Assembly: GCA_002719315.1 (NCBI GenBank)
Contig: PBHD01000005.1
Coordinates: 155,133 to 219,132 of the forward strand
Length of the DNA stretch: 64,000 nucleotides
Direction: 5' to 3'
DNA from: Flavobacteriaceae bacterium
GTDB taxonomy: Bacteria > Bacteroidota > Bacteroidia > Flavobacteriales > Flavobacteriaceae
Shown here piece by piece: positions 28,805-64,000 of the stretch. Position 1 is the first letter of the stretch. Each line of letters starts with the position of its first letter. The translations under genes and the position numbers were made by a program. The notes beneath the pieces are model-generated. The model had not been told where the DNA came from and did no database searches. It was given only the letters and a program-made list of their open reading frames with translations.

Positions 28805-28821
28805 AAGTACTTTTTTTACCT
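28805..28821 (+). promoter_or_regulatory. Degenerate fourth copy of the island motif
   Basis: AAGTACTTTTTTTACCT matches the core AAGTACTTTTGTTACTT at 15 of 17 positions. It lies 44 nt upstream of copy 1. Confidence 0.35.
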
Positions 28822-28846
28822 AAATATTTTGATACTTAATATTTTT

Positions 28847-28868
28847 TTAAGTACTTTTGGTACTTGAT
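28847..28868 (+). promoter_or_regulatory. Island motif copy 1 (contains a Bacteroidota-type -7 box)
   Basis: TTAAGTACTTTTGGTACTTGAT. TACTTTTG (28852-28859) fits TAnnTTTG. Direct repeat GTACTT-N3-GTACTT. It lies 25 nt upstream of the ATG at 28884. Confidence 0.6.
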
Positions 28869-28883
28869 ATAAGTTTAATTAAA

Positions 28884-29396
28884 ATGTTAGGTAAATTAAT
28901 TACTTCTAAAACCCGGTTGAGACTTTTATTAAAATTTTTTATTTCACAAGCCAACCGGGGTTATTTAAATGGTTTGGCAACTGAAATGGGAGAATCTTCT
29001 AATGCAATCAGAAAAGAACTTAATCACCTTTATGGAGCGGGGTATCTTCAAAAAATTAAATCAAATAATAAAGTTGAATATAAAGCTAATATAAAACATC
29101 CATTATTTGAAGTTCTTCAAAAAGTTGTATTTAAACATTTAGGTCTTGAAGATTTAGTTGAAACAGTATTAGATAGGATGGGTAATGTAAAACAAATTGT
29201 TTTAGTTGGAGATTATGCCAAAGGGAATGATTCAGGTAATATCGAAGTTTTTCTTATTGGAAAAAATTTGAATATGGAATATATAGCTCAATTGGAAGAA
29301 AAAATCGAAAAATTAATTAAAAGAAAAGTTAGCTTTTATTTGGCAACAAAAATTTTAAATGATCAACCTAATATTGTGCTTTATAATAATAATTAA
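28884..29396 (+). CDS. Winged-helix (ArsR-like) DNA-binding protein fused to a degenerate nucleotidyltransferase-like domain; first gene of the island
   Basis: N-terminal wHTH-like TRLRLLLKFF...GYLNGLATEMGESSNAIRKELNHLYGAGYL. C-terminal VLVGDYAKGNDSGNIEVFLIG resembles an MNT-type NTase core but lacks the DxD. Start moved from the TTG at 28857, which lies inside the motif, to the ATG at 28884. Confidence 0.65.
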   Translation: MLGKLITSKTRLRLLLKFFISQANRGYLNGLATEMGESSNAIRKELNHLYGAGYLQKIKSNNKVEYKANIKHPLFEVLQKVVFKHLGLEDLVETVLDRMGNVKQIVLVGDYAKGNDSGNIEVFLIGKNLNMEYIAQLEEKIEKLIKRKVSFYLATKILNDQPNIVLYNNN

Positions 29397-29398
29397 TA

Positions 29399-29749
29399 AT
29401 GATTTCAATTGAAAAAGAAGATCGTCCATGGGGAAGGTTTTTTGTTTTGCATGATGAACCTCAGTATAAAATAAAAAGAATTGAAGTAGAACCTGGGCAT
29501 AGGCTATCTTATCAATATCACAATTCTAGATCTGAAGTTTGGTCAATTGTTAGTGGCGAGGCAATAATAACAATTAATGGATTAGAAGGAGAGTATAATG
29601 TTGGAAAGGCAGTTATAATTCCTCAAGGAACAAAACATCGTATTCAAAATAATGGAAATGAAAAACTAATTTTTATTGAAGTTCAAACTGGAACTTATTT
29701 TGGTGAGGATGATATAGTAAGGATTGAAGATGATTATAATAGAACTTGA
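29399..29749 (+). CDS. Cupin-domain protein (mannose-6-phosphate isomerase type II C-terminal-domain-like)
   Basis: WGRFFVL...YKIKRIEVEPGHRLSYQYHNSRSEVWSIVSGEA is typical of the PMI/GMP cupin. Confidence 0.7.
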   Translation: MISIEKEDRPWGRFFVLHDEPQYKIKRIEVEPGHRLSYQYHNSRSEVWSIVSGEAIITINGLEGEYNVGKAVIIPQGTKHRIQNNGNEKLIFIEVQTGTYFGEDDIVRIEDDYNRT

Positions 29750-29750
29750 A

Positions 29751-30173
29751 ATGAAAAAAGTTATAATTGTATCAGGGTATTTTAATCCACTTCATAAAGG
29801 ACATATTGAATATTTTAAACTTTCTAAACAGAAAGGTGATTTACTTTTTGTTATTATTAATAATGATATTCAAAGGGAATTAAAAGGATCAAAAAAATTT
29901 ATGGACCAAGAAGAAAGATTATTAATTATTAGCGAATTGAAATTGGTTGATAAGGCATATTTATCTATTGATGAAGATAAATCTGTTTCAAAAACAATTG
30001 AAAAAATTTTTAAAGAATGTAATAAAAATCGAAAATTTTATTTTGCTAATGGTGGTGATCAGAGATTATTAAATATACCAGAAAGTGAAATTTGTCAAAA
30101 GTTGGGAATTGAATTAATTGATGGGTTAGGAGATAAAATCCAGTCTTCTTCTTGGATTTTGAAAAATTTGTAA
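29751..30173 (+). CDS. Small cytidylyl/adenylyltransferase (HxGH nucleotidyltransferase; TagD / RfaE-domain-II-like)
   Basis: The VSGYFNPLHKGHIEYF motif. Start moved to the ATG at 29751 (MKKVIIVSG). Confidence 0.7.
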   Translation: MKKVIIVSGYFNPLHKGHIEYFKLSKQKGDLLFVIINNDIQRELKGSKKFMDQEERLLIISELKLVDKAYLSIDEDKSVSKTIEKIFKECNKNRKFYFANGGDQRLLNIPESEICQKLGIELIDGLGDKIQSSSWILKNL

Positions 30174-30174
30174 A

Positions 30175-31593
30175 ATGGATATAAAAAGAATTTGTTGTAT
30201 TGGTGCTGGTTTTGTTGGTGGCCCAACAATGGCCGTAATTGCTCTTAATTGTCCTGAAATTGAAATTACAGTTGTAGACAATAATCCTGAAAGAATTTCA
30301 GCTTGGAATAATAAGAATTTGGATTTGTTGCCTGTTTATGAGCCAGGTCTAAAAGATATAATAAAAAAAGTTAGAGGTAAGAATTTATTTTTTTCTGACA
30401 AAATAGATGATGCAATCATTTCATCTCAAATGATTTTTATGGCAGTAAATACTCCAACAAAAATTAAGGGTAAAGGTAAAGGTATGGCTGCTGATTTGAC
30501 TTTTGTTGAAAAATGTGCATATCAAATTGGTAAAGTTTCTACAGATGATAAAATTATTGTTGAAAAATCAACTCTTCCAGTAAGAACAGCTGAAAGAATA
30601 AAAAAAATATTAGAATCATTTGATAAGCCTATTAATTTTGAAGTTATTTCAAATCCAGAATTTTTAGCTGAAGGAACCGCTATTAATGATTTATTTAAAT
30701 CTGATAGGGTTTTAATTGGAGGAGATTCAACAATTGAAGGGAAAAAAGCAGTCTCATCTCTAGTAAAAATTTATTCAAGATGGATTAAAAGAAATAGAAT
30801 TTTGTTAACCAATGTATGGTCATCTGAGTTAATTAAACTTGCATCAAATGCTATGTTAGCTCAAAGAATTTCATCAATAAATGCCCTCTCAGCTTTTTGT
30901 GAAAAAACTGGAGCTAATATAGAGGAAGTTTCAAAAGGTATTGGTCTAGATTCAAGAATAGGTCCAAAATTCTTAAAAGCTTCAGTTGGATTTGGAGGGA
31001 GTTGTTTTCAAAAGGATATTTTGAATTTAGTTTATTTATGTGAATATTATAATTTGAAAGAAGTTGCTGAATATTGGCATCAAGTTGTAAAAATAAATGA
31101 TTATCAAAAAAACAGATTTTCAAATAAAATAATAGAATCGTTTAATTATTCAATTAAAAACAAAATAATAACAATTTTGGGGTGGGCATTTAAAAAAGAC
31201 ACTAATGATTCTAGAGAATCTGCATCTATATATGTTACAGAAAAGTTATTAGGTGCAGGGGCTAAAATTAAAGTTTATGATCCAATGATTGATGAAAAAA
31301 GAGTTTATTCAGATTTGAGAATTTTTCTAGAATATAGAGGTTTGAGTTACAAAGAAATAGAATCAAAAATTTCAAGTGTAAGCGTTTATTCTGATTATAA
31401 GGCTGCTATTTCAAAAACTAATGCTATTGCTATACTTACTGAATGGGACGAGTTCAAATCATATAATTGGAAAAATTTGATAAAAAAAATGTCACTTCAA
31501 TATAAAATTTTTGATGGCCGGAATATAATTAATTCAGATGATGTAAACAGTAAAATTTATAAATTAGGAATTACTCAGTTTAAAAATATATGA
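30175..31593 (+). CDS. ugd: UDP-glucose 6-dehydrogenase, long animal-like type
   Basis: ICCIGAGFVGGP, NPEFLAEGTA and the catalytic Cys segment GFGGSCFQKDILNLVYLCE. It is collinear along its length with my recollection of animal UGDH. Confidence 0.85.
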   Translation: MDIKRICCIGAGFVGGPTMAVIALNCPEIEITVVDNNPERISAWNNKNLDLLPVYEPGLKDIIKKVRGKNLFFSDKIDDAIISSQMIFMAVNTPTKIKGKGKGMAADLTFVEKCAYQIGKVSTDDKIIVEKSTLPVRTAERIKKILESFDKPINFEVISNPEFLAEGTAINDLFKSDRVLIGGDSTIEGKKAVSSLVKIYSRWIKRNRILLTNVWSSELIKLASNAMLAQRISSINALSAFCEKTGANIEEVSKGIGLDSRIGPKFLKASVGFGGSCFQKDILNLVYLCEYYNLKEVAEYWHQVVKINDYQKNRFSNKIIESFNYSIKNKIITILGWAFKKDTNDSRESASIYVTEKLLGAGAKIKVYDPMIDEKRVYSDLRIFLEYRGLSYKEIESKISSVSVYSDYKAAISKTNAIAILTEWDEFKSYNWKNLIKKMSLQYKIFDGRNIINSDDVNSKIYKLGITQFKNI

Positions 31594-33335
31594 TTGTAAA
31601 TAAATTAAGACACATCGTTTCTAATAGGTATAATAATAAAATTTTTCTTTTAATTATTTTATTAATTATTGGAATGATTATAGAAGCTTTTGGACTAGGA
31701 ATAGTTATACCAGTACTTTCAACAATTCTTGAACCAAAAACCTTACTTGATTATGATTTTATATTTAATCTCTTTGAACTTATTAATATAAAGACAGATG
31801 TTGAAATAAGATTATTTATTTTGAGTTTCTTAATATCAATATATCTATTTAAAGCATTATTCTTAATATTCTTATCTTATTTTCAGTTCAAATTTTTAGG
31901 CAATTTATCTTATCATTTAACAAATAAGCTTTTTGGAATATATCTCCAACAACCATATAAATTTTATTTGAATAATAATTCGTCAGAATTAGTTAAAGAT
32001 ATTCAAGTTGAAATTACTTTGATGATTTCTTTTTTACAATCTGTAATTGCAATAGTAACTGAATCCTTTTTAGTATTATCCGTATTAATAACATTAATTT
32101 TTATTGAACCAACAGGGGCAATTTATATTATATTCTTTTTCTCATTCTTTTCAATAATTTATTTTCAATTAACAAGAAAAAAACTTTCAATTTGGGGAAA
32201 AGAAAGACAAGCTAAGGATAGTAAAATATATAGGACAGTTATGGAAAGTCTGTCAGGCATTAAATCTATTAAGGTTTTAGTAAAAGAGAATTTTTTTAAA
32301 AAAATTTTAATGAAATCTACTAGAGTAAAATACGATATATTTATTAAACAAAATACTGTCAATTTAATACCAAGACATTATTTAGAATTTTTAACAATTC
32401 TTGGATTATCATTATTAATATTAATTGTAATGAATAAGCATGAACAGCTTAATAATGTCATAATTTCAATAGGGGTGTGCTTAGCTGCGATTTTTAGAAT
32501 ACTACCGTCATTTAATAGAATAATTTCATCTATTCAAAATTTAAAGTTTCATGCCCCAAGTGTTGAGTCTGTTTACCAAGCATTTACTAAAAATGATTTA
32601 GTTAATAAAGATTATAATCTAAATGATAAAAAAATATTGGTTTTTAAAGAAAAAATATCACTAAAAAATATAAGTTTTTCATATGACAGATTTAATAATA
32701 TTTTAAATGATGCTAATTTTGAAATCAGAAAAGGAGAATCTATAGGAATTATCGGACAATCTGGTCAAGGTAAAAGTACTTTGGCGGATTTAATAACAGG
32801 TCTTTTAGAGCCAAATAAAGGGCAAATTAAAGTTGATGGAACTAATATGAAAAATTTAAACTTGATTTCATGGAAAAAAAACATTGGATATGTTCCACAA
32901 GAAATTTTTCTTATAGATGATAGTATAAAAAACAATATTGCTCTAGGGGTTTCTGATGATCAAATTTCTTTAAACAGGTTAAATAAAGCTATAAATAAAT
33001 CACAATTAATAAATTTTGTTAACTCTTTAAATAAAAAAATAGACACAAAAGTTGGAGAACGCGGTGTTCAATTATCTGGAGGGCAAAGACAAAGAATAGG
33101 AATAGCAAGGGCATTGTATAATGATCCGGAGATATTGATATTAGATGAAGCTACCAGTTCACTTGATGTTAAAACTGAAAAAGAGTTTATGAATGCAATA
33201 AACTTATTGAAAAGAGAAAAAACATTAATTATAATATCTCATAGATTTTCTACAATAAAAGATTGTGATAAAATTTATGAGATTAAAAATAAAACTTTAA
33301 AAAAAATAGATATAAATGAAAAACAATTGATTTAG
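31590..33335 (+). CDS. Fused TMD-NBD ABC exporter (MsbA/type I exporter-like)
   Basis: Six N-terminal TM helices. Walker A GQSGQGKST, signature LSGGQRQR, Walker B ILILDEATS. ATGA overlap with ugd. Confidence 0.85.
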   Translation: MIVNKLRHIVSNRYNNKIFLLIILLIIGMIIEAFGLGIVIPVLSTILEPKTLLDYDFIFNLFELINIKTDVEIRLFILSFLISIYLFKALFLIFLSYFQFKFLGNLSYHLTNKLFGIYLQQPYKFYLNNNSSELVKDIQVEITLMISFLQSVIAIVTESFLVLSVLITLIFIEPTGAIYIIFFFSFFSIIYFQLTRKKLSIWGKERQAKDSKIYRTVMESLSGIKSIKVLVKENFFKKILMKSTRVKYDIFIKQNTVNLIPRHYLEFLTILGLSLLILIVMNKHEQLNNVIISIGVCLAAIFRILPSFNRIISSIQNLKFHAPSVESVYQAFTKNDLVNKDYNLNDKKILVFKEKISLKNISFSYDRFNNILNDANFEIRKGESIGIIGQSGQGKSTLADLITGLLEPNKGQIKVDGTNMKNLNLISWKKNIGYVPQEIFLIDDSIKNNIALGVSDDQISLNRLNKAINKSQLINFVNSLNKKIDTKVGERGVQLSGGQRQRIGIARALYNDPEILILDEATSSLDVKTEKEFMNAINLLKREKTLIIISHRFSTIKDCDKIYEIKNKTLKKIDINEKQLI

Positions 33336-33336
33336 A

Positions 33337-33969
33337 ATGATTGTACAAATTTTAATTGATAACATAAATTCATGGATGATACCATATGCTAAAAGGTTTT
33401 TACCCGAAATAAATCATTTAGGCTATAAGACAAATTTAGTTTTCGACTCTAATCATGTTGTTAAAGGGAATGTTTTAATTCTATTATCCTGTGAAAAAAT
33501 TTTTAAGAAATTAAAATTAAATGATTTTAATATTGTTGTTCATGAGAGTAAACTTCCAAAAGGTAAAGGGTTTTCTCCTATGACATGGCAAGTTTTAGAA
33601 GGAAAAACAAGAATACCTATTTCTCTTTTTGAAGCAACAAAAAAAGTTGATTCTGGTAGAGTTTATTTTCAAGATTTTATAAAACTAGATGGTTTTGAAT
33701 TAATTGATGAAATAAGGGAAAAACAGGCTAATAAGACTAAAGAATTAATTTTAAATTTTTTAAAAAAAATTAATAATTTAAAAGTTATTCAAAAAAGAGG
33801 AGAAGAATCCTTTTACAGGAGAAGGACATCTAAAGACAGTATGTTAGATATAAATAAAACTATTAAAGAGCAATTTAATTTGCTAAGGGTTGTAGATAAT
33901 TTGAGATACCCAGCTTATTTTAAAATTGGAAAAAACAACTATAAAATTGAAATTACTAAAATGAATTAA
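33337..33969 (+). CDS. Formyltransferase-fold protein 1 (atypical active-site spacing)
   Basis: VVHESKLPKGKGFSPMTWQVLEG resembles the H-x-S-L-LP-x-x-RG formyltransferase segment. KKVDSGRVY supplies the downstream Asp. Confidence 0.6.
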   Translation: MIVQILIDNINSWMIPYAKRFLPEINHLGYKTNLVFDSNHVVKGNVLILLSCEKIFKKLKLNDFNIVVHESKLPKGKGFSPMTWQVLEGKTRIPISLFEATKKVDSGRVYFQDFIKLDGFELIDEIREKQANKTKELILNFLKKINNLKVIQKRGEESFYRRRTSKDSMLDINKTIKEQFNLLRVVDNLRYPAYFKIGKNNYKIEITKMN

Positions 33970-33988
33970 TTTTTATTATCTAAAAAAA

Positions 33989-35020
33989 ATGGAAAAGATT
34001 GAAACTAAATTTTCTTCAATATCTGATGAAAACCCTTGTTATATCATCGCCGAAATTGGAAGCAATCATAATGGAAATTTTGATTTAGCCTGTGAAATGA
34101 TTGAAAAAGCTTCAGAAGCAGGAGTTAATGCAGTAAAATTCCAGACATTTAAAGCTTCAAATCATTATTCAAAAAACACGAAAAAAATCAGTCTTTATGA
34201 AGAAGATATTTATTCTTTGATTGAAAAGTTAGAAATTAATAGATCTTGGCATAAAAAACTTTCAAAAGTTTGTTATCAAAAAAGGTTAGATTTTTTAGAT
34301 TCACCTTGCGATGACGAAGCAATAGATATAGCTATTAAAGTAGATATGCCTTTAATAAAAGTATCATCTTTTGATATGGTTGATGATAGATTAATTAGAA
34401 GAATTTCGAATACAGGAAGAGGTATTGTTTTTTCCTCAGGAATGGCTAATATGTCTGAAATTGAAAATGCAATAAATATTTCTAGATCTTGTAATAATCA
34501 TAAAATTGCAGTTTTACAGTGCACTTCTATTTATCCTGCTCCTTATTCAATAGTGAACTTAAATTCAATGGAAACAATTAAAAAAGCATTTAATGTAATA
34601 GTTGGGTATTCTGATCATACTCTTGGTGATCATATTTCTTGTGCAGCAGTTGCTATGGGAGCTAAAATAATTGAAAAACATTTTACATTAAACAGAGATT
34701 TTAAAGGGCCAGATCATAGTTTTGCTATTGAATATAATGAACTTAAAGATATGGTTAATAAAATAAGAGATATTGAAATAGGTATGGGAGATGGCATTAA
34801 AAATGGTCCAAGACATGAGGAAATGGAATTTTACAGAAATGCTAGAAGAAGTGTAATTGCGAAAAGAAATATAAAAAAAGGTCAAGTAATCAAAGACGAA
34901 GATTTAATTGTTAAAAGACCAAATTATGGTATACACCCAAAATTTTTATCAGTAATTATTGGAAGAAAAGCAAAGGTTGAAATAATTGAAGATGAACCTG
35001 TAACATGGGAAAAAATATAA
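33989..35020 (+). CDS. Nonulosonic acid synthase (NeuB/PseI/LegI family)
   Basis: The IIAEIGSNHNG motif, a TIM-barrel-length core and a C-terminal SAF-like segment RSVIAKRNIKKGQVIKDEDLIVKRP. Confidence 0.85.
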   Translation: MEKIETKFSSISDENPCYIIAEIGSNHNGNFDLACEMIEKASEAGVNAVKFQTFKASNHYSKNTKKISLYEEDIYSLIEKLEINRSWHKKLSKVCYQKRLDFLDSPCDDEAIDIAIKVDMPLIKVSSFDMVDDRLIRRISNTGRGIVFSSGMANMSEIENAINISRSCNNHKIAVLQCTSIYPAPYSIVNLNSMETIKKAFNVIVGYSDHTLGDHISCAAVAMGAKIIEKHFTLNRDFKGPDHSFAIEYNELKDMVNKIRDIEIGMGDGIKNGPRHEEMEFYRNARRSVIAKRNIKKGQVIKDEDLIVKRPNYGIHPKFLSVIIGRKAKVEIIEDEPVTWEKI

Positions 35021-35961
35021 AGAAGAAAATATTAATTTCAGGTTTAGGTGGTTCATTGTTTCCATTTTTACATAATATTTTAAAAATAAAATATGATTTA
35101 TTTTATGTTGACAACGATACTTTTTTAAAGGATTTATATAAAAATTTAAATCTTTATATATCTCCATTAGCTTCATCAAAAGATTACATTAAATTTATAA
35201 AGAAAATTATTTTAAAGCATAAAATAGATTTTTTTATTCCTTTAATTGATGAAGAAATTATTTCTGTAAAATCAGAGATAGAGGGATATAATGAATTGAA
35301 AATAATAAGTCCTGACTTAGACTTTTGTTTTTTAGCATTGAATAAGTATAGTTTGATGAAAACTCTAGAAAAAGAAAAAATTTCAATTATTAAATCATTT
35401 AAGGCAAATAATTTTAAATGGCAAATTACTCCTCCAATTTTTGTTAAACCTATAATTGGAAGAGGAAGTAGAGGGGTTAAAAAATTAAAAAATAATGAAT
35501 CTTTAAATGCTTATATAAATTTAAATTTTTTAGATCCTAAAGAGATACTTATTCAAGAATATTTATCTGGAATTGAATATACAATAGGAGTTACTGTAAA
35601 TAATTTAAATCATATTCTTTCTATTAGCATAAAAAGAATTATTCGAAAAAAAGGTATCACTATAATAGCTGTAACTGAAAAAAATCAGGAAATCTCAGAT
35701 TTAGTAAAAAAAGTAGTACAAAAATTAGCTCCAAAAGGCCCAATAAATATTCAGTTATTTAGGACAAAAAATAATGAATTTAAAATTTTTGAGATTAATC
35801 CAAGGTTTTCTACAACGACTATAATGAGTTATGCATGTGGTATAGATGAGATTAGTTTATATATAGATTTTTTTGACAAAAAATTTCAGGGAGAACCAAT
35901 ACAACCTAAAGAAGGAAAAATTCTTCATAGACGTTGGGAAAATATTTTTTATGAAAAATAA
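35005..35961 (+). CDS. ATP-grasp ligase
   Basis: Segments VKPIIGRGSRGV, LIQEYLSGIEYT and FEINPRFS. Confidence 0.75.
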   Translation: MGKNIKKKILISGLGGSLFPFLHNILKIKYDLFYVDNDTFLKDLYKNLNLYISPLASSKDYIKFIKKIILKHKIDFFIPLIDEEIISVKSEIEGYNELKIISPDLDFCFLALNKYSLMKTLEKEKISIIKSFKANNFKWQITPPIFVKPIIGRGSRGVKKLKNNESLNAYINLNFLDPKEILIQEYLSGIEYTIGVTVNNLNHILSISIKRIIRKKGITIIAVTEKNQEISDLVKKVVQKLAPKGPINIQLFRTKNNEFKIFEINPRFSTTTIMSYACGIDEISLYIDFFDKKFQGEPIQPKEGKILHRRWENIFYEK

Positions 35962-38262: not shown

Positions 38263-38264
38263 TT

Positions 38265-40521: not shown

Positions 40522-40534
40522 TTAAAGTAGAAAT

Positions 40535-43039: not shown

Positions 43040-43042
43040 ATT

Positions 43043-55794: not shown

Positions 55795-55808
55795 TAAAAA
55801 ATTAAAAT

Positions 55809-56198
55809 ATGAAAGTAAAAGATGTAATGCTTAAAAAAGGAAAATTTCCAATATTAACACCTAAAACTTTATTAAAAGAAGCTTTAGTTGAAATGGTTAA
55901 GACAAAGCTTGGTTTAGTTTGTATAACCGATTTAAATAACAAGTTAATAGGCATATTTACTGATGGGGATATTAGAAGAATGTTATTAAAAAATCAAAAG
56001 CCATTTTCAGCTTTTTTTGTAGATGATATAATTGATCATGCAAATTTAGATCCTACAACTTGTAAAGATTCTGATTCTTTGAAAGAATCATTAAAATTGA
56101 TGGAAGAAAAGGGAATTTGGGATTTGCCAGTATTGGATGAGGAAAATAATTTAATAGGACTTTTTCATTTGCATCAAGCAATATCAAAGTTGATATAG
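55809..56198 (+). CDS. Stand-alone CBS-pair protein (resembles the C-terminal half of KpsF/KdsD)
   Basis: 129 aa with two CBS repeats (LVCITDLNNKLIGIFTDGDIRR and WDLPVLDEENNLIGLFHLHQ). No SIS domain is present in this ORF or next to it. Confidence 0.75.
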   Translation: MKVKDVMLKKGKFPILTPKTLLKEALVEMVKTKLGLVCITDLNNKLIGIFTDGDIRRMLLKNQKPFSAFFVDDIIDHANLDPTTCKDSDSLKESLKLMEEKGIWDLPVLDEENNLIGLFHLHQAISKLI

Positions 56199-56215
56199 TT
56201 ATTAGATTAATTTAA

Positions 56216-57049
56216 ATGAAAAAACTTAATAAAAATTATTTAGGGTGGAATTCAAAAGATCATTTAATTTCCTTCAATTTTTGGAATGATTTATCTAATT
56301 ATGAGTTTAATTTTAGGTGGGGAAGTTTTAGGGAAAATCAAATTATTTCGGAAGTTTTAAAAAAAGGAGATTCATTGTTTGAAGTTGGATGTGCAACTGG
56401 AACTACAGTTAGGTGGCTAAAAAATACTGGAATTTTAAGTAAAATTAAATATTTAGGAGTTGACATTAGTGATACAGCAATTAGTAAAGCAAATTTCTTA
56501 CACCCTAAAGTTAATTTTAAAAAGATTGGTTTAGGACCTTTAAAAGAGTATTATAATAAATTTGATTATGTTTTCAGTAGAGATACAATTATGCATCAAG
56601 AAAAACCTTTTGAATTTTTATGGGAACTTATTAAATGTGCTAATAAAGGACTAATAATAAGATTAAGAACTAGAGATTCAGGAATCACAAATTATAATTT
56701 AGAAAGTAATTGTCAACTCCATTATGATAATTATTGGATGCCATATATAGTGATTAATATAAGTGAAATAATAGATTTTTTAAAAAGTTTAAAAATTATT
56801 TATAGTATAGAGATTAATCGTTCCTATGAAGTTTTAGGAGGAAGTACAAATAGATATTTACCGAAAGATTTATATTTTAAATCAGCAGGAGGGGCTGAAA
56901 CTTCAATTTTTTTAAAAATTGATAAAACAAAAACCTCGAATGATATTGAAATTATTAAAACAGATCTTGTTGAAGGAAGAAAACTTATAAGATTTTCTAT
57001 TTTTAAAAGATTTATTATAGCTGTTCTAAAAAAATTAAAACTATTATAA
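56216..57049 (+). CDS. Class I SAM-dependent methyltransferase
   Basis: Motif I LFEVGCATGTT. Confidence 0.65.
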   Translation: MKKLNKNYLGWNSKDHLISFNFWNDLSNYEFNFRWGSFRENQIISEVLKKGDSLFEVGCATGTTVRWLKNTGILSKIKYLGVDISDTAISKANFLHPKVNFKKIGLGPLKEYYNKFDYVFSRDTIMHQEKPFEFLWELIKCANKGLIIRLRTRDSGITNYNLESNCQLHYDNYWMPYIVINISEIIDFLKSLKIIYSIEINRSYEVLGGSTNRYLPKDLYFKSAGGAETSIFLKIDKTKTSNDIEIIKTDLVEGRKLIRFSIFKRFIIAVLKKLKLL

Positions 57050-57823
57050 ATGAAAAGAAAAGATTTAAAAAAAGCATTAAGGTTAAGAAAAAAAATTTTT
57101 GGAGCATGGGTTTCTTATTCAGAACCTTCAATTGCTGAAACTTTTGCTAAAGCTAATTTTGATTTTTTAGTAATAGATATGGAACATTCTACAATAACAT
57201 TACCTCAGTCAAAAAATATTATATCCGTTTGCCAATCTATGGGAGTCTCATGTTTGCCAAGGCCTGTTTCTCATTCTAATGATTATTTTAAACCATTATT
57301 AGAATTTGGACCTGACGGTCTTTTTGTTCAAATGGTTAATAATCCTTCTGAGTTGAATAAAATTATTAATTATGTAAAATATCCTCCAATTGGTTGCAGG
57401 AGTTATGGAATTAATAGAGCTCAAGAATATGGTTTTAAAATTGAAGAATATTTTTCTTTATGGAATGATGAATCTTCTTTAATAATTCAAATTGAATCAA
57501 TTGAAGGGGTTAAGAATATTGAATCTCTACTAGATAATGATCAAGTAGATGCCGTTATGATAGGGCCTTATGACATTTCTGGTTCACTTGGTGTCCCGGG
57601 AGAAATTAATCATCCAAAAGTAATTGAAGCTTCAAAAAAAGTAATTTCCGCTTGTGAAAAGTATGGAAAGAGTTGTGGAACTCAAATTTCTGATCCCAAT
57701 CAAGAAAATATTAAATCTTTATTTGATATGGGTTACACCTACTTGATTCTTGGATCTGATTTATTTGTTTTGTGGAGATGGGCTGAAAAGATGAGTAAAC
57801 TTATTAATAGAATCAAAGATTAA
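57050..57823 (+). CDS. HpcH/HpaI-family class II (pyruvate-dependent) aldolase
   Basis: Segments FDFLVIDMEHS, IQIESIEGVKNIESL and IGPYDISGSLG. Confidence 0.8.
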   Translation: MKRKDLKKALRLRKKIFGAWVSYSEPSIAETFAKANFDFLVIDMEHSTITLPQSKNIISVCQSMGVSCLPRPVSHSNDYFKPLLEFGPDGLFVQMVNNPSELNKIINYVKYPPIGCRSYGINRAQEYGFKIEEYFSLWNDESSLIIQIESIEGVKNIESLLDNDQVDAVMIGPYDISGSLGVPGEINHPKVIEASKKVISACEKYGKSCGTQISDPNQENIKSLFDMGYTYLILGSDLFVLWRWAEKMSKLINRIKD

Positions 57824-57827
57824 AAAA

Positions 57828-58604
57828 ATGTATTTAAATAAATTATTTAATTTAAAAGGAAAAGTTGCTGCTGTTATAGGAGGGGGAGGATATTTATGTA
57901 GTAAAATGTCAATGGGCCTGGCTAAATCAGGATGTAAATTGGCGATTTTAGATCTAAGATTAAAAAAAGCAAAAAAAGTTTGTAATGAAATTATATTTGA
58001 GGGATATAATGAGACAATTGCATTATCAATAGATGTATCAAATAAAGAAAGTCATGAAAGTGCTTTAAATTATATCGTTAAAAAATTTGGGAGAGTTGAT
58101 ATATTAATAAATGGTGCAGGAATTAATAGCTCATCTCCATTTTTGGAAATTGATAGTAATGAATGGTATTCTATAATCGATTCTCAGTTAACAGGAACTT
58201 TTTATGGATGTCAAGTATTTGGAAAGCATATGTTGAAAAATAATTCTGGGTCGATAATTAATGTTTCTTCAGCATCTGCTGGACCACCTCTTTCAAAAGC
58301 ATTTACATATTCAGTTTCAAAGGCAGGTATAAAAAACTTAACCCAAAATTTGGGTAGAGAATGGGGAGAAAAAGGTGTTAGGGTTAATGCTATTAGACCT
58401 GGATTTTTCCCAACTGAATGGAATAAAAAAAACTTTATTACAAAGGATAGAGAAAAAAAAATATTAGGACATACTCCAATGAATAGATATGGTAAACCTG
58501 ATGAATTAATAGGTGCAATTTTATGGTTATCTTCTGAAGCTTCCAGTTTTGTTACAGGTGCTGAAATTACTGTGGATGGGGGTTATTCTTGCATGACAAT
58601 TTAA
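57828..58604 (+). CDS. Classical SDR oxidoreductase
   Basis: Segments AVIGGGGYLCS, NGAG and YSVSKAGIKNL. Confidence 0.8.
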   Translation: MYLNKLFNLKGKVAAVIGGGGYLCSKMSMGLAKSGCKLAILDLRLKKAKKVCNEIIFEGYNETIALSIDVSNKESHESALNYIVKKFGRVDILINGAGINSSSPFLEIDSNEWYSIIDSQLTGTFYGCQVFGKHMLKNNSGSIINVSSASAGPPLSKAFTYSVSKAGIKNLTQNLGREWGEKGVRVNAIRPGFFPTEWNKKNFITKDREKKILGHTPMNRYGKPDELIGAILWLSSEASSFVTGAEITVDGGYSCMTI

Positions 58605-58610
58605 ATAAAA

Positions 58611-59372
58611 ATGAAAAATAAAAAGACAGTTATAATTACTGGTGGAAATAGAGGAATAGGTTTGGGAATAACAAAAGTTTTCCTTAGAAATAATTATAAT
58701 GTATTTGTTGGTTCTAGAACAGGATTTTCAAAAGAAAGTCATAACTTAAACATAAAATCTGTAAATCATTTCAAAATAGATGTTAGGAATTTTAATGATC
58801 ACGTCAAACTTGCAAAAAAAGCAATTGAATTAACAGGTAGACTAGACTCTTATATTAATAATGCAGGATATTCAAAATGGGTTTCTATAAATAATATTGA
58901 AGAAAAATTTTTAAATAATATTTTGGAAACTAATTTAAAAGGTGTTTTTTGGGGTTGTAAAGCTGCAGCAAAATTTTTAAATTCTGAAAATCCCTCAATT
59001 ATAAATGTCTCAAGTTTAGCAGGTAAAAGAGGGAGTTTAAATAATTCTGCTTATGTAGCTTCAAAATTTGGTGTTAATGGACTTACTCAGTCTTTAGCTA
59101 AAGAATTAGGTGAAAAAAATATAAGAGTAAATGCAGTTTGCCCAGTACTCATTGCAACTAAAGGATTAATTAAAGCTTTAGAGGAAGAAGAAGCTCCAGG
59201 AAAAAAAGGAGCAATTAAGTTTATTGAAGAGTTTTCAAGAATTAATTCTCCATTAAATAGAATGCCAACATCTGAAGAAGTTGGAGAAATGTGTTTATAT
59301 CTTGCTAGTGATAAGGCTAAAGCAATAACCGGTCAATGTATTAATGTAGATTGTGGAGTTTTACCTCAATAA
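58611..59372 (+). CDS. Classical SDR oxidoreductase (FabG-like)
   Basis: Segments ITGGNRGIGLG, NNAG and YVASKFGVNGL. Confidence 0.8.
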   Translation: MKNKKTVIITGGNRGIGLGITKVFLRNNYNVFVGSRTGFSKESHNLNIKSVNHFKIDVRNFNDHVKLAKKAIELTGRLDSYINNAGYSKWVSINNIEEKFLNNILETNLKGVFWGCKAAAKFLNSENPSIINVSSLAGKRGSLNNSAYVASKFGVNGLTQSLAKELGEKNIRVNAVCPVLIATKGLIKALEEEEAPGKKGAIKFIEEFSRINSPLNRMPTSEEVGEMCLYLASDKAKAITGQCINVDCGVLPQ

Positions 59373-59373
59373 A

Positions 59374-60141
59374 ATGAATTTAAAAGTAATAATTCCTGCT
59401 CACTTAGCCTCTTTGAGATTAAAAGAAAAAATTTTAATTGACATTCACGGTTTACCCATGATTGAACATGTAAGAAGAAGAGTTTTATTATCAAAAGAAG
59501 TTAGTGAAGTAATTGTTGCAACTTGCGATTTTGAAATAAAAAAAACTGTTGAGGGTTTTGGAGGAAAAGTAGTAATGACTTCCAATGATCATCAGAATGG
59601 TACTAGTAGAGTTGCTGAGGCAGTAAGTAAAATAAAATGTTCACATGTATTAATAGTTCAAGGAGATGAACCTTTGATTCATCCAGAACATATTAATCTA
59701 ATGGTTAAATCAATGCTAAATAATAATAAAATAAAAATTTGGAACGGAATAACTTCAATTAATTCTATTGATGATTTAAATAATCGTGACCTAGTAAAAT
59801 GTTTTGTCAATAGTAAAAATCAAATTGGAATGTGTTTCAGAAATAACCCAGGTTTTTCTGGCTTAAAAAAATTGAATAAGTCAATATTTAAAATACAGGG
59901 TTTAATAGCATTTAAAAAAAATTTTCTAATGAATTTAGTAAATAAACCCCCATCACCATATGAATTAGCTGAGTCAATTGAACAAATGAGATCTATTGAA
60001 AATGGAAATCAAATTCAAGCAGTTATGTTAAATAAGTCTTTTTCTTCTATAAATAATTTAGAAGAATTAAAAGAAGTTCGCAATATTTTAAAAAAAAGTA
60101 AATTAGAAATAGAAATTTTAAATACTATTAAGCATAATTAA
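59374..60141 (+). CDS. kdsB: CMP-Kdo synthetase family cytidylyltransferase (KdsB-like, divergent N-terminal loop)
   Basis: Segments VIIPAHLASLRLKEKILIDIHGLPMIEHV, GTSRVAEA, VQGDEPL and ESIEQMR. Start moved to the ATG at 59374. Confidence 0.75.
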   Translation: MNLKVIIPAHLASLRLKEKILIDIHGLPMIEHVRRRVLLSKEVSEVIVATCDFEIKKTVEGFGGKVVMTSNDHQNGTSRVAEAVSKIKCSHVLIVQGDEPLIHPEHINLMVKSMLNNNKIKIWNGITSINSIDDLNNRDLVKCFVNSKNQIGMCFRNNPGFSGLKKLNKSIFKIQGLIAFKKNFLMNLVNKPPSPYELAESIEQMRSIENGNQIQAVMLNKSFSSINNLEELKEVRNILKKSKLEIEILNTIKHN

Positions 60142-61105: not shown

Positions 61106-61875
61106 GCTTTAAATATAAGTTTAGGATTTTCTTTCATATATCTTGATGTATATACTTTTCCTTGCTTTAAATTTTGTTTTTCCAATTTGAGTATTTTATT
61201 TCTAGTTATTGTCCTATGAGTTTTAATAAATCCATTTAAACCAAGTAAAGTTAATTTTAAACCTATAGAATAGAAATTATCTTTAAAGTCAATTTCAGGT
61301 TTAAATCGATAAATTAAATCTCCAGAATCAATCTTATCGTCTATTAAATGAACTGTTACACCTAATCCTTTTTTTCCTTTTGTAGCAAGAGCAGATATTA
61401 TTCCTTCTCCTCTAAATTCTGGAGACCAACCCCAATGCATATTTATGAAAAAAGCATTTTTTAAAGACAAAATATTTGTTTTTATAATACTAGTTCCAAA
61501 AACATAAATTAATTTGTAGTTATTTTTTTTTAGTATTTCAAATGTTTTTTGATCATTTATATTTTCTATTTCATATAATATTATTTCTTTTTGAAGTTCA
61601 TTGTAATTCTTAATTAATATCCTGTTGTTGTGATATTGTTGTTTACCAAAATATTTGTCAAAAAAAATTTTATTTAAAACTTTAATTAAAAAATTTTTTG
61701 TCAAACTAAACTCTTTATTTAAAGTTTTTATTAATTCAAAAATATTTTTTTTTCTCGGGAAGGAAGATTTACCTCCTTCAAATACTACGGCATCAATTAT
61801 TCCTTTTTTATACAAATAATTTGCTGCATATACTTGAAAAGATGATCTTTTAGTTAGTAATATTCCTTTACTCAT
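61081..61875 (-). CDS. Formyltransferase-fold protein 3
   Basis: Segments INMHWGWSPEFRGEG and VHLIDDKIDSGDLI. Confidence 0.6.
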   Translation of the reverse strand: MSKGILLTKRSSFQVYAANYLYKKGIIDAVVFEGGKSSFPRKKNIFELIKTLNKEFSLTKNFLIKVLNKIFFDKYFGKQQYHNNRILIKNYNELQKEIILYEIENINDQKTFEILKKNNYKLIYVFGTSIIKTNILSLKNAFFINMHWGWSPEFRGEGIISALATKGKKGLGVTVHLIDDKIDSGDLIYRFKPEIDFKDNFYSIGLKLTLLGLNGFIKTHRTITRNKILKLEKQNLKQGKVYTSRYMKENPKLIFKAWKNLKKS

Positions 61876-62028
61876 TAAATTAGAATGATTTAAAAATATT
61901 TTGAAACAAATCTAAGGATTCTATTAGGTTTACTCATAATTATTTATCTATTATATTTATCTAGATTAAATACATTTGTATTCTATTTAAACTTTATCAA
62001 TTTATATATAATTGTTTTTTAACACATT

Positions 62029-62050
62029 TTAAGTACTTTTGTTACTTATT
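62029..62050 (+). promoter_or_regulatory. Island motif copy 3 (contains a -7 box)
   Basis: TTAAGTACTTTTGTTACTTATT, with TACTTTTG at 62034-62041. It lies in the 240-nt divergent gap, 75 nt upstream of the ATG at 62116. Confidence 0.55.
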
Positions 62051-62115
62051 AATAGAGACTTTTAATTATTATTAAAAAAATAAAAACATTTAAGTAAAAT
62101 AAATTATTAATAATT

Positions 62116-63111
62116 ATGAGAAGAATTGTTTTCACTTTAAAGAATTTTATTAAGGATTTAAATCAAGATTTTTTAAGATATTTTACTGGGAAATTAAAAA
62201 AAAATGAAAAACAAAATTTATCTGAAACTCAAATTTACCCTAAAGGTAAAAATATAATTAAGGTTTTGAACATTGAAGCTAAGCAAAGATTAGACAAAAT
62301 AGATTTGTCAGAAAACTCAAATATAGCCTCAATTGGAACTTGTTTTGCTGAGGAGCTTTCAATTCATTTAAAAAACACATCTAGTTATTTAAATTACATT
62401 AATTATGAAAAAAATGTTTTTAATTTTTCTGCAAATTGGGGTCGTGTTTACACAGTTAAAAATTTGAAGCAGATTATCGATTATTCACTTACTGAAAATT
62501 ACCCCTTATTAGTAGAGCAATACAAAAAAAAATTTTTTGATCCATTAAGAGAGTACAGTGTTGGTTATTTTAATTCTAAAGATGAAGCAATAAATAGTAT
62601 TAAAAGACATAGAATAAATAGTAGAGAGGTATTTAATAAAACTAATTTAATTGTTATTACTTTAGGTCAGAATGAGTATTGGTATGATCTCAAGAATAAT
62701 GTCACATGGGGTACAACACCGGCAATAATTTTTAGAAAAGAAAAGAATAGATTTGAGGCAAGAGAGTATTCATTTAAGGAAAATGTTGAAGATTTAAAAT
62801 ATATAGTCTTAAAACTAAGAAAGTTTAATCCCAAAATAAATATTATTTTCACAGTAAGCCCTGTGGCTTCATATGCAACTTTTATAAGTCAAAATATAGT
62901 TTCACAATCATTTGCCGGGAAATGTACTCTTCGTGCCGCTATTCATGAAATCTTACCATTAGATGACAAAATTTTTTATTACCCTTCTTTTGAATTTGTA
63001 TTATCAGATAATCCAAGTTCATTTATTTATGATAATAGGCATGTAAAAAGATTTAAGGTTTCTCAAATTTTGTCTTCTTTGAATAAGTCTTTACTAAAAA
63101 ATAAATTTTAA
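62116..63111 (+). CDS. GSCFA-family protein (function unknown)
   Basis: IASIGTCFAEE matches the G-S/T-C-F-A motif that names the family. Confidence 0.6.
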   Translation: MRRIVFTLKNFIKDLNQDFLRYFTGKLKKNEKQNLSETQIYPKGKNIIKVLNIEAKQRLDKIDLSENSNIASIGTCFAEELSIHLKNTSSYLNYINYEKNVFNFSANWGRVYTVKNLKQIIDYSLTENYPLLVEQYKKKFFDPLREYSVGYFNSKDEAINSIKRHRINSREVFNKTNLIVITLGQNEYWYDLKNNVTWGTTPAIIFRKEKNRFEAREYSFKENVEDLKYIVLKLRKFNPKINIIFTVSPVASYATFISQNIVSQSFAGKCTLRAAIHEILPLDDKIFYYPSFEFVLSDNPSSFIYDNRHVKRFKVSQILSSLNKSLLKNKF

Positions 63112-63122
63112 TTTATATCTAG

Positions 63123-64000
63123 GTGATAATTAAGAAGGAAAATTTAAAAATAAGTGAAAGTGAAATTTTTTTGCAAATTGGCAAAAAAAGAAAATTTTAT
63201 GAAAGTAAGGTAAACAACTTTCTAATTAATTTAAATATTTCTAATTCTAGTAAAGTATGGTGGGCCTTTAATTTTACTGCAAGGAACCCAGTAACTTCAA
63301 AACTTTTCGAAAAATTAATTGTTGTATTAGCCATAATTGATATAATTGAGAGTGATCAATCAAAACAAATAGATTTTTATAAAATTTCAGTTGGTCAAAG
63401 ATCAATTATTAATCAATATTTTGATTATAAACCAAAATATTATATAAATTCATTTTATGATTTTTTTTTAAAAAATATATTTTTTGAATATATAAAGATA
63501 ATTTATTTACTAATAGAAATATTTTTAAGATTTTTTAAATTAAAAAATAAAACAATAACAACTAATATATTGTTATTCAGCTACATAGATAATATTAAAA
63601 GAAATGACAGAGATTCTTATTTTGGAAATTTATTAAATAAAATAACTGAAGATTATCCTGAAAAAAAAGTTTCATATTTATTTTATTTATATAGGCCATT
63701 TATTAAAATGAAAAAGTGTTTAAAGAATGAAAAATCAAATTATAGTTTTATTTTTAATCACTTACATTTAATTGACTATTTATGGGCTTTTATTCAAGTT
63801 ATAAATGGTTATTTTTTTTCAATTAAAAATTCAAATATTAGTTTAAATAATAAGAATATATTTTTCAAAGAGATTATAAGAGAAACCATGAAAAAAGAAT
63901 TATCCAGAGGTTATATAAATAATTTACTTGTTTACAGAGCTTCAAAAAGGATAAGAAATATTCCTAAATTAGAAACTTTAATTTACCCTTTTGAAAATAA
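63123..64000 (+). CDS. Hypothetical surface-carbohydrate-locus protein, N-terminal part (open to the window end; GTG start)
   Basis: My own translation stays open from the GTG at 63123 to 64000 (VIIKKENLKISESEIFLQIGKKRKFYESK...WWAFNFTARNP...LIYPFEN). It is missing from the ORF track because no stop is reached. Confidence 0.5.
   Translation, partial: MIIKKENLKISESEIFLQIGKKRKFYESKVNNFLINLNISNSSKVWWAFNFTARNPVTSKLFEKLIVVLAIIDIIESDQSKQIDFYKISVGQRSIINQYFDYKPKYYINSFYDFFLKNIFFEYIKIIYLLIEIFLRFFKLKNKTITTNILLFSYIDNIKRNDRDSYFGNLLNKITEDYPEKKVSYLFYLYRPFIKMKKCLKNEKSNYSFIFNHLHLIDYLWAFIQVINGYFFSIKNSNISLNNKNIFFKEIIRETMKKELSRGYINNLLVYRASKRIRNIPKLETLIYPFEN

Follow-up and report, generated by a model that had tools for sequence, protein, structure and literature searches.

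The window analysed here is a 64,000-nt stretch of DNA from an uncultured marine Flavobacteriaceae bacterium, and from position 28857 onwards it carries a compact block of nucleotide-sugar genes. Between 28857 and 60141 we counted 33 open reading frames of at least 80 amino acids, all on the + strand, with gaps of -89 to +226 nt; the tight run reported in the initial annotation is borne out, with a count of 33 rather than 34. Direct inspection of the sequence revealed all four ATGA overlaps reported there, at 31590, 41662, 46217 and 47887. As described previously, a divergent pair follows, encoding a polysaccharide deacetylase-like protein (60143-61105, -) and a formyltransferase (61081-61875, -), and + strand genes then run to the window end, namely a GSCFA-family gene (62116-63111) and an ORF starting at 63123 (these three families by Pfam). 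The lower GC content suggested for the block was also found (0.244, versus 0.292 in 1-19.5 kb), with a value of 0.212 in 49.3-54.7 kb.

Every enzyme class in the earlier inventory was recovered by Pfam and NCBIfam searches. The first four genes (28857..31593, +) encode a small protein, a ManC-C-terminal cupin, a small nucleotidyltransferase and a nucleotide-sugar 6-dehydrogenase. A small ORF is indeed present where a wHTH gene had been placed (28884), but its identity as a wHTH gene is unsupported (best family E 0.016-0.046, not significant). The nucleotide-sugar tailoring block (33337..49056, +) extends from a formyltransferase-like gene (33337) to a PseC equivalog (47887; 522 bits, cutoff 423). 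It includes a NeuB family synthase (33989), an ATP-grasp protein (35005), SDRs at 35873 and 46976 (the latter RmlD-like), a PIG-L/LmbE deacetylase (37549), a Gfo/Idh/MocA protein (38265), a second DegT aminotransferase (39238), two WbuX amidotransferases (40535 and 43043) with HisH (41662) and WbuZ/HisF (42269), a second formyltransferase fold (44341; the third is the - strand gene at 61081), a methyltransferase (45054), PseF (46217; 285 bits, cutoff 206) and a Metallophos protein. A NanM-type putative sugar O-methyltransferase (53653..54705, +; NCBIfam TIGR04371 4.6e-35, above cutoff) precedes a Kdo-type block (54928..60141, +), which is also kept in locus L136. The latter block comprises KdsA (54928; 333 bits, cutoff 242), a CBS pair that corresponds to the C-terminal part of KpsF/GutQ only, the third methyltransferase (56216), an HpcH/HpaI aldolase, two SDRs (57828 and 58611) and KdsB (59353; 201 bits, cutoff 193). 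KdsA, the CBS pair, the aldolase, the Metallophos protein, the nucleotide-sugar dehydrogenase, the cupin, the small nucleotidyltransferase, the polysaccharide deacetylase and the GSCFA protein were all absent from the earlier list. The Pse-type pathway is incomplete as annotated, with neither a PseG nor a PseH homologue found in the locus.

In agreement with the initial annotation, Pfam searches of 28857-64000 gave no GT2, GT4, Wzx, Wzc or Wza match at E<=0.01, and four ORFs in this interval belong to no Pfam family. Transfer had been ascribed to the unassigned ORFs, to upstream Wzy_C-TPR proteins or to genes beyond the window, and candidates were found in all three places.

Upstream of the block are two Wzy_C-TPR membrane proteins that are 34% identical. 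One (22752..25064, +; Pfam Wzy_C 5.4e-23 plus TPR) spans the membrane about 12 times and ends in a TPR domain, and the other (26477..28801, +; Wzy_C 1.8e-20), of the ligase or oligosaccharyltransferase type, also matches an NCBIfam putative O-glycosylation ligase family (3.1e-21, under cutoff). The Wzy_C domain (WaaL/PglL/Wzy superfamily) does not distinguish between ligases, O-oligosaccharyltransferases and Wzy polymerases. Their proposed role in transfer gains support, and a gene for a WecA/MraY-family polyprenyl-phosphate HexNAc-1-phosphate transferase (25472..26410, -; Pfam Glycos_transf_4, PF00953, 2.6e-27) adjoins them, 2.4 kb upstream of the block. With about 10 TM segments and an NCBIfam WecA match of 2.4e-35 that is under the equivalog cutoff, the encoded protein is, judging from its relatives, the putative initiating enzyme. 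It is co-transcribed with a MORN-repeat gene (25065..25475, -; Pfam MORN_2 1.1e-18), and the two are also neighbours in locus L009. The left edge of this conserved end module is a gene for a 977-aa Ala/Thr/Ser/Gly-rich lipoprotein (19708..22641, +; lipobox LIVSC), with a GC content of 0.374 amid a neighbourhood of about 0.24. No Pfam or NCBIfam family was found for this protein, a 32% identical homologue of which adjoins the Wzy_C-TPR/MORN/WecA genes of L009; it is possibly a surface or glycoprotein partner.

Two extension contigs (L001 and L141), which match the window at 100% identity where they overlap it, show the + strand run continuing past base 64000 with overlapping or near-abutting junctions. 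In window-equivalent coordinates, and all on the + strand, they carry the remainder of a 550-aa ORF (63123..64000 in the window, its first 292 codons) and genes for a 2OG oxygenase (64777-65592), a GT2 with a DDD motif (65589-66413, starting 1,589 nt beyond base 64000), a GT4 (66406-67425), an FnlA/PseB-like dehydratase (67418-68407), a WecB-like protein (68417-69538), an RmlD-like protein (69526-70398), a second, WcaI-family GT4 (70422-71627) and a dehydratase (71624-72655), after which come rplU, rpmA and AdoHcyase. The apparent lack of glycosyltransferases is mostly a window-edge effect: the block looks GT-less because the 64-kb window stops inside the locus, whose assembly genes lie at both ends and partly belong to non-classical families. 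The idea of a glycan island devoid of ordinary glycosyltransferases is thus not upheld, while that of transfer genes outside the window is. The initial annotation had itself named in advance GT2/GT4 genes directly downstream as the finding that would count against it, and these are the genes found there.

Among the unassigned ORFs, one transferase candidate is a 320-aa protein (50903..51865, +). Its only family match is NCBIfam NF046086 (E 1.1e-11, model positions 2-317 of 365), the BFO_1060 glycosyltransferases; the score is 44.5 bits where the family cutoff is 200, which makes it a distant relative only. Its own family has 1,509 representatives, and the protein has an invariant His-Pro motif (H228-P229). 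A profile of this family matched TarL (8.9e-6) and Cps3D (4.3e-5) in the PDB, and KpsC weakly. The AF2 model (pLDDT 95.2) matched GT-B folds in Foldseek searches, and we confidently predict a GT-B fold. By sequence the protein is akin to TagF-like enzymes as well as the pseudaminic/legionaminic acid (Pse/Leg) transferases BFO_1060/Tanf_01245, and these relatives make it a candidate CMP-nonulosonate transferase. The Tannerella relatives are genetically proven to be necessary for Pse/Leg transfer (PMC5420450). The 550-aa ORF can be added to the candidates, since its C-terminal half, encoded beyond base 64000, is a homologue of the 320-aa GT-B/His-Pro proteins (hhalign probability 95.8%, E 7.5e-9); two relatives (P0224 and P0234) carry fused GT2 domains.

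For the 553-aa protein (51896..53557, +), which has an N-terminal helical region containing one TM-like segment and then alternating alpha/beta domains, the GT-B signal is suggestive only. Nearly all of its best Foldseek matches are GT-B proteins (E 1.7e-3 to 0.1, TM about 0.3), found with a low-confidence AF2 model (pLDDT 64.7). The family is rare, with only 7 clusters, one having a weak match to PF27878 (PFTS_polysacc). In every case the gene accompanies the 320-aa GT-B gene, a pairing kept in L136-138, and it possibly encodes a second GT-B transferase. The 527-aa soluble protein (49283..50866, +) is probably an enzyme of the pathway or of tailoring rather than a transferase. It belongs to a widespread, length-conserved, uncharacterised Bacteroidota family (378 homologues, mean column identity 55%) with a precomputed Pfam domain on none of the 120 listed; no PDB sequence match and no TM segment were detected, and the gene lies directly 3' of PseC-type aminotransferase genes in nonulosonic-acid operons, as in Spirosoma (L142) and in L143.

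The exporter at 31590..33335 (+), previously described as MsbA-type, is a fused TMD-NBD ABC half-transporter (Pfam ABC_membrane plus ABC_tran), but its best NCBIfam match is PglK (1e-107, full length), followed by HepA (9e-86) and MsbA (1e-80), all with scores under the equivalog cutoffs (for PglK, 361 bits against 1000). Judging from these relatives, it may stand in for Wzx. The reported lack of export machinery extends beyond the window, with no Wzx, Wzc or Wza found in the whole locus up to rplU/rpmA. We attribute this absence to the presence of the PglK-like flippase and not to missing data; none of the three would be needed, because no long polymer would be exported. The absence is in keeping with an oligosaccharide that is flipped and then transferred en bloc.

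Taken together, the block probably represents the nucleotide-sugar cargo part of a single locus for a cell-surface glycan, roughly 50 kb in size (about 19.7 kb to 72.7 kb in window-equivalent coordinates) that operates by a flipped-oligosaccharide mechanism. The steps proposed here are deduced from homology, the matches to PglK, WecA and BFO_1060 being under the curated equivalog or family cutoffs. The cytoplasm would produce a CMP-pseudaminic-acid-type sugar modified by acetamidino, formyl or methyl groups, together with a sugar of the CMP-Kdo type, an L-6-deoxy-HexNAc and a diamino-uronic acid. Undecaprenyl phosphate would be primed by the WecA-like enzyme, and the chain lengthened by the GT4 and GT2 enzymes. 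The CMP-activated ulosonic acids would be added by the His-Pro GT-B proteins (50903, the 550-aa ORF and perhaps 51896). The finished oligosaccharide would then be flipped by the PglK-like protein and moved en bloc by a Wzy_C-TPR protein to lipid A-core and/or surface proteins.

A truly unconventional island, in which ordinary GT families are uninvolved and ORFs without a family carry out all transfer and polymerisation, would agree with the Pfam results for 28857-64000 (no GT family at E<=0.01, four ORFs without a family). We consider it very improbable, given that the GT2 and both GT4 genes continue the same packed + run on identical contigs, that the PF00953 initiating transferase is so close upstream and that the end modules are kept in related genomes. 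It is also rather unlikely that the 50903 protein is the missing GT-B-fold nucleotide-sugar hydrolase/epimerase (a PseG, NeuC or LegG analogue), with ulosonic acid transfer left to the 550-aa and/or 553-aa proteins. In favour of this reading, the locus lacks PseG and PseH homologues, the best Foldseek matches are UDP-GlcNAc 2-epimerases, including NeuC, the gene is near PseC here as it is in L136, and the 50903 family is missing from Spirosoma L142, which has a true PseG. However, the sole family HMM match is to glycosyltransferases, the profile matches TagF-like transferases at the catalytic His-Pro region and not PseG/MurG, and hhalign against the Spirosoma PseG gave a probability of 5.8%. 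Moreover, the completed CMP-sugar still builds up in Tannerella when the related gene is mutated (PMC5420450).

The PDB matches of the same protein, with TarL and Cps3D polymerases as its closest solved relatives and a weak KpsC match, would also suit a capsule-like or teichoic-acid-like polymer, rich in ulosonic acid or glycerol phosphate, made by TagF-like cytoplasmic synthesis and exported by a HepA-/Kps-type ABC system. HepA is the second-best match of the ABC protein, and the small nucleotidyltransferase of the locus is TagD/RfaE-like. This seems improbable, as searches between window base 1 and rplU found none of Wza/OPX, Wzc/PCP, KpsE/D and ABC-2 type Wzm/Wzt, the exporter is a half-transporter of the fused PglK/MsbA type, and a WecA-type initiator adjoins, as do ligase-type Wzy_C proteins.

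Three known systems come closest to this locus. The general protein O-glycosylation locus of Tannerella forsythia, also a member of the Bacteroidota, combines Pse5Am7Gra/Leg biosynthesis with nonulosonic acid transferases of the BFO_1060 family (Tanf_01245/TFUB4_00887) (PMC5420450). A Pse-type pathway (PseC, PseF and NeuB-like) is common to both loci, as are tailoring enzymes (acetamidino-forming ones among them), methyltransferases and uronic-acid genes. Each also encodes a soluble transferase (a candidate one in the window), some 320-365 aa long, that combines a TagB/TagF-like GT-B fold and a His-Pro motif. In the window, however, this protein is only distantly related to its Tannerella counterpart, PseG and PseH were not found, a PglK-like ABC protein replaces the Wzx flippase, a Kdo-type block is added, and Wzy_C-TPR and WecA genes adjoin. 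In the pgl-type pathway of Campylobacter jejuni, the ABC flippase PglK translocates an undecaprenyl-PP-linked oligosaccharide, which is then transferred en bloc. The fused half-transporter, the polyprenyl-carrier oligosaccharide with a dedicated initiating transferase and GT4-type enzymes, and the lack of Wzx, Wzy, Wzc and Wza are similar, but the PglK score is far under the equivalog cutoff, and the locus has neither a PglB/STT3 oligosaccharyltransferase nor a PglC-type initiator, the candidates being the Wzy_C (WaaL/PglL-type) TPR proteins and the WecA-type enzyme. The WbuX amidotransferases with their HisH and WbuZ paralogues, and the distal FnlA-like dehydratase, 2-epimerase, reductase and WcaI-family GT4, resemble WbuX-WbuY-WbuZ and FnlA-type O-antigen/LOS loci such as the E. 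coli O145 and P. aeruginosa O-antigen clusters. In those loci wzx and wzy are usually part of the cluster, whereas this locus has neither, and its Wzy_C-domain proteins are outside the tailoring block.

The block had also been regarded as a hypervariable island. This finds no support among contigs with identical flank proteins, which all have the same island, but it does between lineages, since related marine Bacteroidota keep both end modules around middles that are different or much shorter. For example, L009 holds GT4-FnlA-...-GT4-...-WecA-MORN-Wzy_C-TPR-977-like inside 21 kb. A PglK-like gene lies upstream of the GT4-FnlA block in L007 (3.8 kb) and L008 (1.1 kb), and in the latter the block continues to rplU.

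The sequence was extended past base 64000 with contigs found by identity look-ups, which overlap the window at 99.9-100% identity (L001, L003 and L141). One of these, L141, is 100% identical to window positions 63039-64000 and to L001. In window-equivalent coordinates, the same plus-strand run goes on, with genes that overlap or nearly abut. The 550-aa ORF that starts at 63123 continues to 64775 and is followed, all on the plus strand, by genes for a 2OG-Fe(II) oxygenase (64777-65592), a 274-aa Glycos_transf_2 protein with a DDD motif (65589-66413; precomputed Pfam PF00535), a 339-aa Glycos_transf_1 (GT4) protein (66406-67425; precomputed Pfam PF00534/PF13692), an FnlA/PseB-like dehydratase (67418-68407), a WecB-type 2-epimerase scoring above its cutoff (68417-69538), an RmlD-like reductase (69526-70398), a 401-aa WcaI-family GT4 (70422-71627; PF00534/PF13692; WcaI-family E 1.2e-35) and a 4,6-dehydratase-like SDR (71624-72655). 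The genes rplU and rpmA, and next AdoHcyase on the opposite strand, follow from 72713, which puts the end of the locus about 8.7 kb beyond the window. The initial annotation had presented 28805-64000 as an island lacking recognisable GT2/GT4, Wzx, Wzy, Wzc and Wza. Pfam indeed gave no GT2, GT4, Wzx, Wzc or Wza match in 28857-64000, but the reading as a locus without glycosyltransferases has to be dropped, as ordinary GT2 and GT4 genes lie directly downstream in the same operon, and the GT2 and both GT4 genes of the run all fall outside 28805-64000. The anomaly is mainly an effect of the window edge on an otherwise recognisable surface-glycan locus and, as posed, the finding is an ordinary one: a large surface-glycan locus with its transferases beyond the window.

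No Wzx of the Polysacc_synt/MOP family was detected among the ORFs of window 1-64000 (Pfam) or in the 8.7-kb extension to rplU (precomputed Pfam). Similarly, neither Wzc (PCP) nor Wza (OPX) was matched by Pfam across the window or the extension, and no Wzy was seen past base 64000. PDB sequence searches with the downstream GT2 and GT4 returned nothing informative, and a metagenome scan with the downstream dehydratase recovered relatives only, none covering the whole locus. The close relatives of a downstream gene all come from marine Bacteroidota.

The uninterrupted plus-strand run was confirmed by the ORF map, with 33 genes of at least 80 aa (28857-60141) rather than the 34 counted earlier, and with intergenic gaps of -89 to +226 nt. 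The ATGA overlaps at 31590, 41662, 46217 and 47887 can all be read directly in the sequence, and the divergent pair (60143-61875) is followed, as described, by plus-strand genes up to the window end. The lower GC of the block was also verified (0.244 in 28805-64000 vs 0.292 in 1-19.5 kb, the latter region holding transport and housekeeping genes, a TonB-dependent receptor among them), the value falling to 0.212 in 49.3-54.7 kb. The sole two long gaps in the run (49056-49283, 226 nt, and 54705-54928, 222 nt) flank this lowest-GC segment, which carries the genes for the 527-aa, 320-aa and 553-aa proteins and an O-methyltransferase and may be a cassette that was acquired or is transcribed separately. 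An island between rRNA genes, as in SAR11 HVR2, was considered and discarded: the window contains neither rRNA nor tRNA, and the homologues are from Flavobacteriaceae/Bacteroidota.

Pfam and NCBIfam recovered every class of sugar-tailoring enzyme named in the initial annotation, from the synthase, aminotransferases and cytidylyltransferases to the formyltransferases, methyltransferases and SDRs; the wHTH call for the first gene of the run was not upheld, no significant match to any Pfam or NCBIfam family being found. Two WbuX amidotransferases (40535 and 43043) score above the curated NCBIfam cutoffs, as does the HisH beside them; the WbuZ-like HisF paralogue (110.5 bits) is under its cutoff of 299.7. 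For the Pse-type pathway, PseC (47887; 521.9 bits, cutoff 423.5) and PseF (46217; 285.1 bits, cutoff 205.7) are assigned by NCBIfam. The NeuB-family synthase matches NeuB (353 bits) and PseI (287 bits), both under cutoff, and the FnlA/PseB-like dehydratase of the extension scores 497 and 324 bits, again both under cutoff. The RmlD-like SDR and PseC pair of the window occurs as one fused 711-aa protein in another assembly (L143). A Spirosoma PseG query, itself matching PDB 3HBM at 2.5e-12, had no BLASTP match among the window or extension ORFs, and no GNAT match that could represent the PseH acetyltransferase was found in the Pfam searches. These two steps may be supplied by the formyltransferases, the ATP-grasp ligase, the Metallophos protein, the 527-aa protein or the 320-aa ORF 50903.

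For the Kdo-type pathway, KdsA (54928; 333 bits, cutoff 242) and KdsB (59353; 201 bits, cutoff 193) both pass their NCBIfam cutoffs. The KpsF/GutQ match is to the C-terminal CBS part alone, without the SIS domain, and neither a KdsC-type phosphatase nor a SIS isomerase was seen in this block. The block is conserved between the window (54928-60141) and L136, a locus from another assembly (13404-19547), with KdsA, the CBS pair, a methyltransferase, an HpcH/HpaI aldolase, two SDRs and KdsB. This composition suggests that a modified Kdo-type sugar is made rather than plain Kdo.

The ORFs left unassigned had been proposed to hide the missing transferases, and this is best supported for ORF 50903 (50903-51865, 320 aa). 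It matches NF046086, the "BFO_1060 family glycosyltransferase", at 44.5 bits (E 1.1e-11, model positions 2-317 of 365; cutoff 200 bits), and so is homologous to the BFO_1060 proteins without falling within the curated family. In strain 92A2, BFO_1060 is the orthologue of Tanf_01245/TFUB4_00887. According to knockouts, complementation and mass spectrometry of the glycan, Tannerella needs these proteins to attach the Pse or Leg derivative to its O-glycan; they have an HP motif and a domain resembling TagB (PMC5420450). The family of ORF 50903 has 1,509 representatives at E<=1e-3. Among 70 sequences, H228 never varies and P229 is kept in 90% or more, and a profile of these 70 matches, in PDB, the C-terminal domains of TagF-like TarL and Cps3D across the His-Pro region. 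The AF2 model (pLDDT 95.2) has two Rossmann-like domains, and Foldseek places it among GT-B folds (UDP-GlcNAc 2-epimerases, MGD1, LpxB and BshA). The protein thus shows a TagB/TagF-like GT-B fold with a conserved His-Pro motif in the C-terminal domain, and is a candidate CMP-Pse/Leg-type transferase, the BFO_1060 assignment being under the curated cutoff. Because homologues of PseG and PseH were not found, another role for ORF 50903 would be that of a hydrolase analogous to PseG. We regard this as unlikely; in the Tannerella knockouts of the related genes, the finished CMP-sugar still builds up (PMC5420450). A transferase remains the favoured reading of ORF 50903. Its domain also appears in the 550-aa ORF at 63123, the C-terminal half of which aligns to the 320-aa family (hhalign probability 95.8%, E 7.5e-9). 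Two relatives of the 550-aa protein, P0224 (909 aa) and P0234 (758 aa), carry fused Glycos_transf_2 domains, a Rosetta-stone hint that suggests a role in glycan assembly.

For the 553-aa ORF (51896-53557) the case for a GT-B transferase is suggestive only: the predicted model is weak (pLDDT 64.7), and the Foldseek matches, nearly all GT-B and including a polysialyltransferase and TarL, are at E 1.7e-3 or worse with TM about 0.3. Its family comprises 7 clusters only, one with a weak match to PF27878 "PFTS_polysacc", and its gene is invariably paired with the 320-aa gene. BLASTP showed no relation to the ORF at 63123, and hhalign of the 553-aa profile against the 320-aa and 550-aa profiles likewise gave no relation. 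The soluble 527-aa protein (49283-50866) has no match among solved structures. Its family is widespread in Bacteroidota and conserved in length, with a mean column identity of about 55%, and a precomputed Pfam domain is present on 0 of the 120 homologues listed. Its gene lies directly after a PseC-type aminotransferase in nonulosonic acid operons of the window, Spirosoma (L142, 2838-4430) and L143 (10001-11581), and we take the protein to act in the pathway or in tailoring, not in transfer. Pfam at E<=10 gave only noise for the unassigned ORFs, PDB profile searches with the 553-, 550- and 527-aa families gave nothing usable, and an HMM search of all fetched loci with the four family profiles found no further informative members besides a distant 550-aa relative in the compact locus L009. 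Four poorly characterised or uncharacterised families with a link to ulosonic-acid glycans emerge here: the GT-B/His-Pro family of 320 aa (about 1,500 representatives), the related 550-aa family, the rare 553-aa family and the widespread PseC-adjacent 527-aa family.

Assembly genes lie upstream of the block. A WecA/MraY-family initiating transferase (25472-26410, minus strand; PF00953, its WecA match under the curated cutoff) and a MORN protein (25065-25475, minus strand) form a divergently transcribed pair, with a Wzy_C-TPR membrane protein on either side (22752-25064 and 26477-28801). Both have a Wzy_C domain, a C-terminal TPR and 12-13 TM, and they are 34% identical; in L156, a metagenome contig, the first copy is split into ORFs of 319 and 409 aa. 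Since the Wzy_C domain is common to WaaL ligases, PglL O-oligosaccharyltransferases and some Wzy polymerases (PMC3643930), it cannot tell the three apart. Inside the block, the ABC protein (31590-33335) is a TMD + NBD half-transporter whose best NCBIfam match is PglK, at 360.9 bits over model positions 2-557 of 558 (equivalog cutoff 1000); HepA and MsbA rank after it, and all three are under their equivalog cutoffs. PglK is the Campylobacter flippase for lipid-linked oligosaccharides, and the architecture of the ABC protein is compatible with this type.

Next to these genes lies a 977-aa lipoprotein (19708-22641) with lipobox LIVSC and a high content of Ala, Thr, Ser and Gly, which matches no known family. 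Its gene has a GC of 0.374 in a 0.24 neighbourhood. When the unassigned ORFs were searched by tblastn against 135 fetched loci, a relative was found for this protein only, and a homologue (32% identical) adjoins the Wzy_C-TPR/MORN/WecA genes in SAG AG-447-E18 (L009). The lipoprotein might partner the locus as a surface-layer protein or glycoprotein. It has 4 sites of the Bacteroidota O-glycosylation motif D(S/T)(A/I/L/V/M/T), or 4.1 per 1000 aa vs 1.6 in the island proteins, which is too few to build an argument on. A 2025 review (PMC12871550) names the O-oligosaccharyltransferase, the outer-glycan ligase and the core-glycan flippase as components of Bacteroidota O-glycosylation that have yet to be discovered. 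Candidates for such roles are the PglK-like transporter and the two Wzy_C-TPR proteins, which lie beside a surface lipoprotein; the Wzy_C-TPR pair, next to the initiating transferase, offers testable candidates for the missing transfer steps. The fuller proposal, that the lipoprotein, both Wzy_C-TPR proteins, the MORN and WecA-like proteins and the ABC protein could together supply these steps while the 527-, 553- and 550-aa families are new enzymes of ulosonic-acid tailoring and transfer, is a long shot.

With the genes in place as described, the locus would work as follows. A modified CMP-Pse-type sugar, a CMP-Kdo-type sugar, a diamino-uronic acid and an L-6-deoxy-HexNAc would be made in the cytoplasm. 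Undecaprenyl phosphate would be primed by the WecA-like enzyme, the chain extended by the GT4 and GT2 enzymes, and the CMP-activated ulosonic acids added by the His-Pro GT-B proteins. The product would then be flipped by the PglK-like ABC protein and transferred en bloc to lipid A-core and/or proteins by a Wzy_C-TPR protein. Wzx, Wzc and Wza would be absent because no long polymer is exported. The closest systems are the Tannerella O-glycan cluster and the PglK-type en bloc pathways. An abundant, uncultured population of marine Flavobacteriaceae, seen in dozens of metagenome assemblies, would thus have a glycan locus that lacks Wzx and whose product is capped by sugars of the Pse and Kdo types.

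Comparison with relatives bears on the suggestion that the block is a hypervariable island. The locus in L009 is compact, at 21 kb, and its two end modules follow each other directly, in the order GT4, FnlA-like, reductase, epimerase, GT4, several more genes, WecA-like, MORN, Wzy_C-TPR and 977-like. A PglK-like gene is found 3.8 kb upstream of the GT4-FnlA block in L007 and 1.1 kb upstream of it in L008, where the block then continues to rplU. Finally, the tailoring block has a syntenic counterpart in L136, in which both the pair (318 aa and 541 aa) and the KdsA-to-KdsB block recur. From these four loci, conservation applies to the ends, with their assembly genes, and variation between lineages to the middle. 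The suggestion is thus supported between lineages only: look-ups with the flank proteins found no alternative island at this site, and every contig sharing identical flank proteins carries the same island. Many independent assemblies break in or at the edges of the locus (contig ends of L001, L002, L004, L153 and L158). Examples are breaks close to 64.5, 66.8 and 67.6 kb in window-equivalent coordinates, and others within the genes for the 977-aa and Wzy_C proteins. These breaks could reflect micro-diversity or low-complexity AT-rich sequence.
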